Positions 36,921 through 39,744 of a stretch of DNA of 64,000 nt are shown piece after piece. Positions within the stretch are counted from its first letter, which is position 1. Each line of letters begins with the position of its first letter. Source of the DNA: a virus; IMG/VR virus record IMGVR_UViG_3300046692_000072, positions 1-64,000 of that record. One strand, 5' to 3'. The position numbers and the translations under genes were made by a program. A model generated the notes under the pieces. It made no database searches. It was given only the letters and a program-made list of their open reading frames with translations, and was not told the origin of the DNA.

Positions 36921-36979
36921 TAAGCCATTCAATGTGGTGTCCTTCTTTAATTGAACCAGTAGGGAAACTTACTGGTTCT

Positions 36980-37113
36980 TCTTTGTGAGCGATGCGTAAA
37001 ACGGAGCAATGATAGAGCGGGAAGATGACTGTCCAGAGTTTACTGGTGTGTACCGCCTTAGCAGTCCGAGTCATAGCCTCTGGTAGGTGGTTAGTATCCA
37101 CCCCTCACAAAGA
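36980..37113 (+). ncRNA. tRNA-like structured RNA
   Basis: 10-bp terminal stem TCTTTGTGAG/CTCACAAAGA adjoining T-arm-like GGTGG-TTAGTAT-CCACC. Confidence 0.45.
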
Positions 37114-37181
37114 CATACTGTCGCTCAGTCGCGGGGCAGGGAAGATGAGCTGATATCTTGCGTATCAGTTACTGGGACTCA

Positions 37182-37258
37182 CGGTGTGTAGCGCAGTCTG
37201 GTAGCGCATCTGGTTTGGGACCAGAGGGTCGCAAGTTCGAATCTTGCCACACCGACCA
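37182..37258 (+). tRNA. tRNA-Pro(UGG)
   Basis: full cloverleaf, TCTGG-TT-TGG-GA-CCAGA anticodon arm, TTCGAAT T loop, encoded CCA. Confidence 0.95.
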
Positions 37259-37363
37259 TCTTATCTAATAAACCAGGGATCTGATAATTGCCCTGGTCCT
37301 ATGGTGCATGGTACCCTGACGGCACCCTACCGGAAACGGCTTGCGGTTAATGGGTTCAAGTGT

Positions 37364-37439
37364 TGGGGAGTAGCTCAGTTGGTAGAGTGGGAGACTGTTA
37401 ATCTCCTCGTCGTTGGTTCGAGTCCAACCTCCCCAGCCA
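37364..37439 (+). tRNA. tRNA-Asn(GUU)
   Basis: cloverleaf, GGAGA-CT-GTT-AA-TCTCC, encoded CCA. Confidence 0.95.
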
Positions 37440-37459
37440 ATCATTTACAGGATGTTGAC

Positions 37460-37666
37460 ATGACAGACGATCAGATCCATCACATGGTCAATCGCTTCCT
37501 TCAATGGCGATTGCCTCATACGTTCAACCCCGATGGAGGCATCAGCTTCAAGCGGGAGTTCAATGAACACACTGCCCACCCTATGGTGCATGAACCCTTA
37601 GGTACTAACCTGCTGGATGCAACACAGGCTGAAGAGATGATTCGATTCATCACTGAAGATCTTTAA
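37460..37666 (+). CDS. hypothetical protein (68 aa)
   Basis: AGGA RBS; MVNRFLQWRLP..FNPDGGISF..GTNLLDATQAEEMIRF looks like a conserved small phage protein. Confidence 0.7.
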   Translation: MTDDQIHHMVNRFLQWRLPHTFNPDGGISFKREFNEHTAHPMVHEPLGTNLLDATQAEEMIRFITEDL

Positions 37667-37850
37667 GACTCAGGCTAGCGGAACGGGACTAATCATTTAT
37701 GGTTACCCTCAGAGCCAATCACGGATAACACCGCCATAGTCCGTGGGGTTTGCTTTCCTACCTAAGAAGTGTCGATGACTGCCGACAAAAGGAAAGCACA
37801 GTCTGGAACCAAAGGGAGTGAGACCAATCTATCTCCTGCCTTTGCTTTCA

Positions 37851-37924
37851 TGGGGAATAGCCAAGCGGTACGGCAGGAGTTTTTGGTACTCCCACCCCTG
37901 GTTCGAATCCAGGTTCCCCAACCA
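37851..37924 (+). tRNA. tRNA-Gln(UUG)
   Basis: cloverleaf, GGAGT-TT-TTG-GT-ACTCC, encoded CCA. Confidence 0.92.
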
Positions 37925-37947
37925 GTTTGCAGATCCCGCAAGGGATA

Positions 37948-38061
37948 GGACGTGTAGCCCAAGCACAACGCAAGAGGCAGGGACCATGTGCCCGTCAGTG
38001 TGAGTAGGGGAAGGGGAGATACCCGGGTATCAGATCCAACCGAGTCTCACCATGTCCACCA
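37948..38061 (+). ncRNA. tRNA-Met-derived RNA with 34-nt T-loop insertion
   Basis: 7-bp acceptor GGACGTG/CATGTCC followed by A-CCA; T stem GTGAG/CTCAC around a 41-nt loop; distorted CAT anticodon arm. Confidence 0.65.
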
Positions 38062-38375
38062 ATTAAAGTTTCTCCATAGTATTCTCACGAGTCTGTGGAT
38101 AGAGAGCAAGGTCCATAATCTCCACCCTTGCAAACCTAGGAAAGATGGAATAGCCTAGGTGTATTAATTCTAATTGAACCAACTGCGAGGGGAGTTATGC
38201 CTTTCGCCCCGACAGAGTGGTTGGTTCTTTCTTGGGTCCAGCGGGTATGAGCTTCGCTCCGGTTTTATTTATGAGTGTCCTTCCTTTGCCACCTCATAAG
38301 GTTTTCCCGTCGCCTCTCCGCCCCACGCAATCAGATAGCTAGTGCTGGAAAAGCTTCTGATGATCTTCACGAACC

Positions 38376-38489
38376 AAAAAGAACTGTAGGTAATCCTCTG
38401 AGAAGCTGTGTTAATGGGTGGCGTCCCCAACAGCTACTGACGCTGAGGAATTAGAGTGGGTCAGTTCCACTTGCCTTACAGTTCTTTTT
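38376..38489 (+). ncRNA. structured RNA with long terminal stem and T-arm-like hairpin
   Basis: AAAAAGAACTGTAGGTA/TGCCTTACAGTTCTTTTT; AGTGG-GTCAGTT-CCACT. Confidence 0.5.
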
Positions 38490-38536
38490 CGGGCTAATAC
38501 GCCTTTGCAAATCCCAAAAACCTATAGGAAAATTTT

Positions 38537-38728
38537 ATGATCAAGAAGAACATCTTTCTCGCAGCAGCAGGTCTCTTTGTTGTTGCAGGTCTTGCATCGT
38601 GTGGTACGGTTGCCGTATCGTCTGAGCGTCCGCGTAGCGTGACCAACGACCACGAGCAGAACCAGATCAATGAACGCATCGAGAAGAACAAGGCAGAGCG
38701 TGCTGAGCGTGCTGCCAAGGGCTTCTAA
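38537..38728 (+). CDS. small lipoprotein
   Basis: MIKK, hydrophobic core, LASC lipobox; AGGA RBS. Confidence 0.75.
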   Translation: MIKKNIFLAAAGLFVVAGLASCGTVAVSSERPRSVTNDHEQNQINERIEKNKAERAERAAKGF

Positions 38729-38904
38729 CTAATTCGGTAGGATTGTCTTTAACTAGGCATCTGCACCCCTACCGGGTACTGGCAATATGGGGGATCTTTT
38801 GTTTCGTTCGGTGATTCGCACTTACCCAATGTAAACCAGATCCCCCTGAGTCCCTTCCTATTAGACAGCTTCATCCCAAATAGATGAGGCGCTTTAATTG
38901 GAAT

Positions 38905-39052
38905 AGATGTGATTATCGAGAGGCAGGATACGCTTGTGTATTGTATTGGTAGGTTCGAAACTATTAATGCATGTGCAAGTACCTTATCTTCACTAGGGTC
39001 TAGAACCTAGGCAGGTAGGGCTAAGCAAACCTGTCTCGCTGTAATCACATCT
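38905..39052 (+). ncRNA. multibranch structured RNA
   Basis: 11-bp closing stem AGATGTGATTA/TAATCACATCT, internal long hairpin rich in G-U pairs. Confidence 0.5.
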
Positions 39053-39209
39053 TAATGTAATCCTACGATGCATCTCTCTGGTATGAGATCTACGTCATAG
39101 ACCTAGATCAAACGATGACAGGTCAGTTCGGGGATTTGGCTGGGTACACTTACATGCCCCGGAGCATCCCGTATAGGCACAGCGCCCATCTGTATAACTG
39201 GGTATCTAT

Positions 39210-39344
39210 GACAGGATCCTAACAGCTAGTAGTACTGAATGCTGGAAGACGGGTTCATGGAGCCAAGGGGGATAATGCACAGGGGACTTGCAATAACCTG
39301 TGGGGATAATACCCTTGGTGGAGGTTCGATTCCTCCTCCTGTCG
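39210..39344 (+). ncRNA. tRNA-like RNA with giant variable arm
   Basis: acceptor GACAGGA/TCCTGTC, canonical T arm GGAGG-TTCGATT-CCTCC. Confidence 0.6.
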
Positions 39345-39744
39345 CTCACCTAATTGCATACGAATACGACTTGTGCCGTGCTACAGCCCTCAGGGTGATT
39401 GTAGATTTAGAAACCCCATCCACCCACTTGGCTCTGTATAGTGTAAAAGCCCATGGCGACAGGTGGTCGAGCAGTAACGTAGGATTCATCCTGCCTTACA
39501 CCTTGGAGCACACCGAGGTAAGCTTATGGGTCAGATCGGGATGGTCCAGTGTACAGCCCGCTGCCACCTTCCCCTTAAGCAGGAACAGGCTTGAAGCTGT
39601 TTCGGGTTCAACTGATTGTCGAACGAATCAGTAAGGGAGGGTAGTCCACTTCCTTCTCAAGAAGGTTGCTGTAACCGCAGGATAGGGGGAGATCTAGCGT
39701 ACCGGTCGCGAAGCTCCCCCGATACTAATCAAATGGAACCAAGG

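Follow-up and report, generated by a model that had tools for sequence, protein, structure and literature searches.

A conserved island of structured RNAs, tRNAs and tRNA-shaped modules between the late and early genes of an N4-like Rhizobium phage

This work concerns a gene-poor island of ~2.8 kb that fills the gap between the - strand late genes and the + strand early genes in a 64,000-nucleotide stretch of phage DNA (positions 1 to 64,000 of the IMG/VR virus record IMGVR_UViG_3300046692_000072, referred to here as the window). Within the island we find two non-coding RNAs, RNA-1 and RNA-I, that are conserved in 8 phages and whose helices are kept by compensatory changes. A sequence-only reading of the same DNA had proposed an array of structured RNAs interleaved with three tRNAs, several of the units being tRNA-shaped, and both conservation and compensatory changes back that proposal. 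Our preferred interpretation, to which we assign a probability of roughly 60%, is that the island is a co-transcribed array of tRNAs and non-coding RNAs that is read from the + strand and processed at its tRNA-shaped units. The full genome, a virus record of 77,721 bp, comes from a rhizosphere metagenome, and its database relatives identify the source as an N4-like, Demetervirinae-type Rhizobium phage of the Schitoviridae. The nearest of these are seven Rhizobium phages, N4-like podoviruses of the same family with genomes of ~77 kb each, six of them classified as Demetervirinae (genera Acanvirus and Cyamitesvirus) and the seventh, RHEph24, placed to family only; together with the window phage they make up the 8 phages of our alignments. 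An equally gene-poor island is seen in 7/7 relatives, where 2.5-3 kb are nearly blank in public annotations, and a blastn map against them resolves the island into a mosaic of common blocks with ~75% identity.

RNA-1 (38063-38536, +) is a structured RNA of ~470 nucleotides (nt) that occurs in all 8 phages with 79% column identity and long invariant runs. Its consensus fold comprises 106 pairs in 16 helices, with 96.9% of cells paired and 17 pairs showing double changes, a level reached by 0/500 shuffles; when partners were moved by 1-3 columns as a control, pairing was 35-54% and 1-3 pairs had double changes. Read from 5' to 3' the molecule consists of a three-hairpin domain (38066-38163) with invariant loops of 13 and 15 nt, a AATTGAACCA hairpin with a variable top (38163-38235, the second copy of this box in the island), a multibranch core (38230-38364) and the unit 38376-38489, termed C2, in which a closing stem of ~15 bp is stacked on a GGGTCAGTTCC hairpin and helices 13-15 of RNA-1 covary. 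The sequence-only reading had listed 38376-38489 as a stem-closed unit of its own, and stem-closed it is, but it is not separate, forming one conserved block of ~470 nt with 38063-38375. None of the reading frames is open in every phage, variable sites are distributed over the codon positions as 60/70/61 with no 3-periodicity, indel lengths are not multiples of three, and there is no match to Rfam at E<=10. The segments UCCAGCG and UGCUGGA, the latter a hairpin loop, may form a pseudoknot, which is only a candidate because neither segment ever varies. A further long-range pairing, between the H3 loop and 38347-38354, had support too weak to claim. In the window RNA-1 begins 139 nt 3' of tRNA-Gln, and in RHph_Y38 it follows this tRNA directly.

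RNA-I (39371-39545, +) is a second structured RNA, of ~175 nt, found in all 8 phages and carrying the invariant segments CCCCAUCCACCC and GACAGGUGGUCGAG. Its consensus fold of 34 pairs is 95% paired, with double changes at 10 pairs, as compared with 35-49% pairing in the slid controls. On three of five measures none of 500 shuffles reached the observed value and for the count of double-change pairs 3/500 did so, the count of further pair types showing no excess over shuffles. Here too no reading frame is conserved (variable sites by codon position 26/24/31, indels not multiples of three); the first early gene, serving as a coding control, has one open frame and a third-position excess (32/29/59). 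Covariation is strong in both molecules, and no module of the island matches Rfam.

Three true tRNAs had been claimed, and ARAGORN and Rfam call exactly three, all on the + strand and all with an encoded CCA: tRNA-Pro(UGG) at 37182-37258 (Rfam 69.9 bits), tRNA-Asn(GUU) at 37364-37439 (66.7 bits), for which RHph_I1_6 alone among the relatives carries a counterpart, and tRNA-Gln(UUG) at 37851-37924 (55.9 bits). Beyond these, Rfam at E<=10 gives just an 18-bit tRNA-Sec-like match (39277-39345) and noise over the island, and neither program finds a transfer-messenger RNA, that is a tRNA-like domain plus tag frame. We infer that the role of these tRNAs is likely ordinary, as their anticodons read A/U-ending codons and the GC content of the phage is 47%. 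The two short open reading frames (ORFs) that had been judged credible are borne out by translation. One (37460-37666, +) is an open frame of 68 aa with AGGA 7 nt upstream and no Pfam or PHROG match; in one metagenome contig the segment holding it is replaced. The other (38537-38728, +) is a small lipoprotein gene of 63 aa with the lipobox LASC, conserved and annotated as a coding sequence in every relative, whose frame is open in all of them (variable sites by codon position 39/36/55). Nine nt before its start codon lies the palindrome CCTATAGG (38521-38528), invariant in 8/8 phages, which overlaps the likely ribosome-binding site of the gene. The tRNAs are flanked at zero to few nt by stem-closed modules among which the small ORFs are embedded, and the modules termed A and B adjoin tRNA 5' ends.

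In their modeled folds several modules have the build of a tRNA, the long closing stem and a T-type hairpin being coaxial; one of them terminates in ACCA. Four units had been described as having an acceptor-like stem beside a T-type hairpin and no normal anticodon loop, and this description holds for those at 36980-37113, 37948-38061, 38376-38489 and 39210-39344: a 5-bp anticodon stem with a 7-nt loop is absent from the predicted or consensus folds of all four, and neither these units nor those of the relatives score with the tRNA covariance model (RF00005) or ARAGORN. When both strands of the complete genome were screened strictly for a 7-bp stem directly adjoined on its 3' strand by a T arm of 5 bp with a 7-nt loop, the screen returned the 3 tRNAs, 39210-39344 and two loci at 12.7 kb and 59.7 kb that are taken to be chance, the matches numbering 10 on the + strand vs 0 on the - strand. 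The unit at 39210-39344 (+), the sole non-tRNA locus of the island to pass, is alone in fully possessing a 7-bp acceptor stacked directly on a T stem of 5 bp whose 7-nt loop reads U-U-C-R-A; it combines the acceptor GACAGGA/TCCTGTC and the canonical T arm GGAGG-TTCGATT-CCTCC with a long extra arm, and has no anticodon loop and no CCA. In the relatives the sequence after tRNA-Gln (L001:3860-4010, L005:2361-2512 and L007:2667-2752) holds other tRNA-like elements with canonical GGTTCGA(A/T)TCC hairpins (GGTTCGAATCC), which are called by neither ARAGORN nor Rfam and are unlike the unit of the window at the equivalent slot.

That unit, 37948-38061 (+), has a 7-bp acceptor, a discriminator A followed by CCA and no 7-nt anticodon loop; a short variable hairpin occupies the place of the anticodon arm, the loop of the T stem is expanded by an inserted hairpin, and no tRNA model matches at E<=10. 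It is common to RHEph16 and RHph_Y2_6, with a consensus of 38 pairs, 5 of them with double changes; an acceptor G-U becomes G-C, and the inserted hairpin stays paired through changes in both relatives. From the other relatives it is absent as a block, and the metagenome contig in which the segment of the 68-aa ORF is replaced also skips 37932-38066. Unit A (36980-37113, +), a stem-closed leader module, ends in a T-type hairpin that reads GGTTAGTATCC here and GGGTCAGTTCC in the relatives, in which the unit stops 0-3 nt 5' of a tRNA. All relatives keep its closing stem TTTGTGAG/CTCACAAA, which shows a compensatory change to TTTATGGG/CTCATAAA, and its inner domain is found with compensatory stems in the distant N4-like contig L066 (E 4e-7). 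Units A and C2 are paralogues that have in common a 3' element of 30 nt, in which a T-type hairpin with the loop GUCAGUU is followed by the 3' strand of the long closing stem; in both the stem is longer than a 7-bp acceptor. The window has 2 copies of the 9-mer GGTCAGTTC in its 64 kb, each lying on the + strand within the island, and every relative has 2 or 3, always inside the island.

The remaining modules are smaller. At 36945-36990 (+) a AATTGAACCA box, a variable hairpin and TGGTTCTTCTTT follow one another in what looks like a terminator or attenuator; a terminator-like scan match (36953-36978) is followed by a T-rich tail, and in the relatives the base of the stem never changes, whilst its upper part varies yet stays paired. 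Module B (37760-37850, +), a structured leader adjoining tRNA-Gln, is 87% conserved with the Y38 group and shows compensatory stems (GACUG/CAGUC vs GGCUC/GAGCC). Module E (38736-38873, +) consists of two hairpins after the lipoprotein gene (38736-38774 and 38790-38846; z of -2.6 and -4.2) and is near-invariant in 6 aligned phages, several of its 26 pairs showing G-U/G-C alternations. In module G (39094-39212, +) a conserved core (39118-39202) bears the loop UUUGGCUGGGUACACUUACAUG; the module is 95% identical in RHph_I1_6 and RHph_N38, and its core is present in the distant N4-like contig L010, beside tRNA-Gln (E 1.6e-5), with the stem changed from GGGG/CCCC to GAGC/GCUC. Modules J and K (39562-39720, +) are hairpins before the first early gene with z of about -2.2, of which J is common to 3 relatives and K (GGGGGAG...CUCCCCC, 39685-39720) keeps its stem in 8/8 phages around a variable interior. 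Finally, a strain-specific insertion at 38905-39052 (+) forms a very stable stem-closed unit of 148 nt with an apical GGTTCGAAAC hairpin and 10 G-U pairs, whose folding energies on the + and - strands (-64.4 vs -40.4 kcal/mol) are 24 kcal/mol apart. Another metagenome contig joins 38902 to 39059 and so is without exactly this unit. Imperfect direct repeats, TTAATTGGAAT and TTAATGTAAT, border the unit on its two sides (38895-38905 and 39050-39062); repeats of this kind would fit slippage over the hairpin as a way of losing the unit, or insertion at a short target repeat as a way of gaining it. At the position of 38853-39093 the relatives have another stem-closed module, of ~215 nt.

Between strains, modules are gained or lost precisely as whole units. 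Those at 38905-39052 and 39210-39344 are unique to the window phage, no counterpart having turned up among the relatives, among plasmids or among 50,697 phage records. Plasmid searches in general yielded no match. The contigs L010 and L066 are N4-like members of IMG/VR with ~70% terminase identity that bear Pro-Asn-...-Gln tRNA arrays at the equivalent genomic place. In each, five tRNAs separated by gaps of several hundred nt lie on the - strand at the late/early junction, in the order Pro, Asn, Thr, Gln, Arg for L010 (2195-4885) and Pro, Asn, Arg, Leu, Gln for L066 (2700-6400); the other 30 N4-like loci scanned have no tRNA at this junction. Neither nhmmer nor three covariance models (R1-R3) detected RNA-1 or RNA-I in 80 other N4-like loci. 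Exact-pattern scans with the loop motif of RNA-1 gave no match in JGI metagenomes, matches to L008 and L009 in IMG/VR that are AT-rich and attributed to chance, and, among 185,579 bacterial and archaeal genomes (GTDB), one 22-nt match inside a 486-aa ORF of a metagenome-assembled genome, again a chance match with ~0.14 expected. The corresponding scan of IMG/VR with the RNA-I motif gave none, and the module G motif matched only the contig of L010 in IMG/VR and nothing in bacterial genomes.

It is conservation and covariation, not energy, that carry the claim of structured RNAs. When the ten units delimited in the sequence-only reading are compared with dinucleotide shuffles, four fold clearly better (38376-38489 with z = -4.4, 38790-38846 with -4.2, 38905-39052 with -7.2 and 39210-39344 with -3.2) but three are unremarkable, and a number of results, which we gather here, weigh against the processed array. 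The three units in question, 36980-37113 (z = -0.76), 37948-38061 and 39094-39212, have folding energies that are not significant, and a blind sliding scan with 120-nt windows gives a mean z of -0.44 for the island vs -1.18 for coding controls (20000-23000 and 45000-48000). One of the outcomes that the sequence-only reading had named as refuting, folding no better than in dinucleotide shuffles, has thus in part been obtained; the sliding scan does not rise above coding DNA, and the claim could not stand on energy by itself. Nor does folding fix the strand, RNAalifold energies for the two strands being similar (-100.1 vs -91.7), and the promoter scan found no convincing promoter for the island. 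The T-type loop GUCAGUU deviates from the U54/A58 rule of true T loops, so that recognition by RNase P is uncertain. RNA-1 and RNA-I have been found in a small clade of Rhizobium phages alone, and the statistics therefore rest on ~5 independent lineages. No RNA run was found to contain the stretch, which is present in four DNA contigs, and of the kinds of partner protein looked for (TROVE, RtcB, CCA-adding enzyme, integrase) the phage encodes none. As an observation on the controls themselves, the coding segments beat their own dinucleotide shuffles on the + strand, 27% of windows having z < -2, more than in the island.

A + strand reading of the island is supported by context and not by G-U bias. 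The proposed preponderance of G-U pairs favoring this strand did not hold up (15 G-U vs 8 A-C cells in helices predicted on both strands, p=0.21), and the case rests instead on the fact that all tRNAs, ORFs, CCA ends, T-arm orientations and all 5 terminator-like hairpins point the same way and that 8/10 units fold better as + strand RNA. Of the TTGACA promoter that had been placed at 36892, what remains is CTTGAC at 36891, conserved in 8/8 phages, but there is no -10 element and the promoter scan does not list it; it forms part of a conserved double box at the island head, CTTGAC...GGACA(T/G)G (36891-36925, +), both halves of which are present in all 8 phages. A better sigma-70-like site is TTGTCG-18-TATATT at 36474-36503. 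It lies in a 90-nt block (36454-36546) whose identity in all relatives, 89-94%, is far higher than that of its flanks, and which also contains a strong ribosome-binding site and an AT-rich palindrome. The ORF after the block differs between phages: it has 104 aa (phrog_419) in the window and 83 aa in RHph_I1_6, and in the others no more than 8 codons of it are left. The block is probably the first rightward promoter, or near the genome end. GAACCA was considered as a boundary signal and rejected, as it belongs to a genome-wide ribosome-binding context, TGAACCAAGGAG, which in its extended form lies 7-9 nt before the ATG of many + strand genes (40944, 42720, 42869, 43605, 43717 and others). Genome-wide, TTGAACCA has 22 copies on the + strand and 5 on the - strand, and inside the island ribosome-binding-type copies with no following start codon are found at 36952, 37806, 38175 and 38371.

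The anatomy of the island would suit a polycistronic tRNA operon in which the segments other than tRNAs are functional RNAs too. Were the island such a processed array, the stem-closed modules would form the leader, spacer and trailer segments of one transcript or of a few, in which host RNase P, on the 5' side, and RNase Z or exonucleases, on the 3' side, would cut at the tRNAs and the tRNA-shaped units. Besides the tRNAs and the mRNAs of the two small ORFs, this would yield RNA-1, RNA-I and modules A/C2, E and G as stable RNAs, which would act in trans on host or phage factors by way of their invariant loops. Because the island is sited at the junction with the early genes, its action is expected to fall early in infection. 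That partners are recognised is suggested by the length and invariance of the loops in RNA-1, RNA-I and module G. A comparison of the invariant loops with the phage genome found no complementary sites, and this, together with the lack of genes for Ro/TROVE, RtcB and a CCA-adding enzyme, makes it probable that any partners are host molecules, our leading guess being a tRNA-recognising or ribosome-associated host factor. One can go further and picture RNA-1 and RNA-I as new classes of effector RNA and the tRNA-shaped modules as working mimics, in other words an RNA-only early arsenal, released by host tRNA-processing enzymes without translation, that diverts host factors recognising tRNAs or ribosomes (e.g., anticodon nucleases, tRNA-directed defences); we regard this extension as speculative and on balance doubtful.

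The main rival to the processed array is that the conserved structures are cis-acting parts of mRNAs. In that case the lipoprotein gene would have RNA-1 as a long leader with a regulatory or stabilising role, the early operon would be led by RNA-I, J and K, and the AATTGAACCA hairpins with their U-rich tails would be attenuators or antitermination sites. No doubt, some features fit: RNA-1 extends up to the ribosome-binding site of the lipoprotein gene and accompanies that gene in 8/8 phages, RNA-I, J and K are directly upstream of the first early ORF, and terminator-like hairpins are found at 36953 and 38209. However, a leader of 470 nt and 16 helices would be very large for a gene of 63 aa, units A and B stand before tRNAs and not ORFs, modules A and G sit in different neighborhoods in other phages, and the ACCA-ended tRNA-shaped unit points to processing into separate molecules. 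We consider this explanation a serious though distinctly less probable one, at something like one chance in five.

The other alternatives that were weighed, a role at the level of DNA, tRNA debris and hidden small proteins, are less likely than cis-acting leaders. The hairpins might function in DNA, as a genome end or terminal repeat, in packaging, replication or injection control, as single-stranded hairpin promoters of the N4 type, or in recombination between cassettes. The island does occupy the left-end place of N4-like genomes, between late and early genes, the strand comparisons given above are inconclusive so that hairpins could form on either strand, and whole modules are swapped or lost precisely, with the repeats already described flanking one of them. 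Long-range multibranch helices and tRNA-type architecture are, however, features of RNA, 38905-39052 is more stable by 24 kcal/mol as + strand RNA, and no tyrosine recombinase is encoded. Promoters of the N4/LUZ7 type are defined by repeated short hairpins having a 4-7 bp stem, a 3-nt loop and a common sequence (PMC9163698), whereas in or near the island we find only three unrelated 5-bp hairpins with 3-nt loops and no common motif. Integron-like attC junctions were likewise rejected, there being no Phage_integrase match in the genome and the indels removing an entire hairpin unit. A DNA-level role is accordingly improbable.

Slightly more improbable still is that much of the island is the debris of tRNA turnover, decayed tRNA genes and neutral spacers in which pairing is kept by descent and has no function. 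The tRNA content does vary between relatives, sliding-window energies are ordinary, and 38905-39052 and 39210-39344 carry T-arm remnants and have no homologues; for these two strain-specific units debris or recent insertion is possible. Neutral decay is, however, unable to explain the long invariant loops and double compensatory changes of RNA-1 and RNA-I, the inserted hairpin of 37948-38061 stays paired through changes, and modules A and G are retained in phages with ~70% terminase identity. That the conserved blocks encode unannotated small proteins is very unlikely indeed, for although many ORFs of 30-60 aa can be drawn in the region, no frame is open across relatives, neither RNA has a third-position excess and the indels are not multiples of three.

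The surroundings of the island are those of an N4-like genome. In the window and its relatives the late block, with the large terminase and two further genes on the - strand, ends at ~36.3 kb, and a run of small early genes begins on the + strand at 39745. The last late-strand gene (35738-36307, -) fuses a domain of the N4 Gp49 / Sf6 gp66 family (PF13876) to a crAss001_48-related domain (PF21825). The neighboring 189-aa protein, used as a search anchor, has no relatives in IMG/VR. Some ~4% of these phage genomes, nearly blank in public annotations, is thus conserved RNA-coding sequence. Rhizobium etli and R. phaseoli are the hosts of the close relatives, which are lytic phages in culture, and with cultured phages, RNAs well defined by covariation and natural variants that differ by single modules, it should be straightforward to carry out deletion, expression and pull-down work.

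The sequence-only reading had not recognised the island as a described system, and in this respect it needs correction, as the kind is known from RNAC and RNAD of T4, from GOLLD and from ROOL; structured RNAs in phage tRNA clusters have been known since T4, with GOLLD and ROOL following, none with an established function. The T4 RNAs, also called the stable species 1 and 2 RNAs, lie in the T4 tRNA gene cluster, are processed together with the tRNAs and have tRNA-like ends. The island resembles them in that non-tRNA RNAs are encoded within or beside a phage tRNA cluster on the same strand, and the tRNA-like ends have a parallel in the ACCA-ended unit 37948-38061. It differs in having many more and larger predicted RNA modules (to ~470 nt), in an N4-like podovirus and beside early genes, and a sequence relation to the T4 RNAs is not to be expected. 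The function of RNAC and RNAD is still unknown (PMC9697503). In the N4-like Pseudomonas phage LUZ7 putative small RNAs have been described between orf69 and orf70, some apparently made by processing, which are <250 nt, expressed late and with no tRNA link reported (PMC9163698). Like these, the RNAs of the island would come from an intergenic region of an N4-like phage; the LUZ7 molecules are set apart by their size, late expression and lack of a reported association with tRNAs. YrlA (RF02553), the bacterial and phage Y RNA-like family, also joins a long closing stem to a module with a tRNA-like T arm, but it has no match in the window at E<=10 and the phage is without a Ro/TROVE gene; a YrlA match in the relative L001 spans two adjacent true tRNAs and is spurious.

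GOLLD (RF01998) and ROOL (RF03087), large ornate RNAs encoded by phages and prophages, are frequently found next to tRNA islands and are of unknown function (10.1101/2024.12.08.627333). RNA-1 is similar in being phage-encoded, in its 16 helices and ~470 nt and in its location directly downstream of tRNAs, and, speculatively, it could be a functional counterpart of the GOLLD and ROOL assemblies. Unlike them it is smaller and confined to one small phage clade, and it matches neither covariance model at the gathering score or at E<=10. With model matches to known families failing, the RNAs of the island are new families within a known kind. They are notable for how many distinct modules there are, because several have a tRNA-shaped architecture and because the phages that carry them are lytic and easily cultured.

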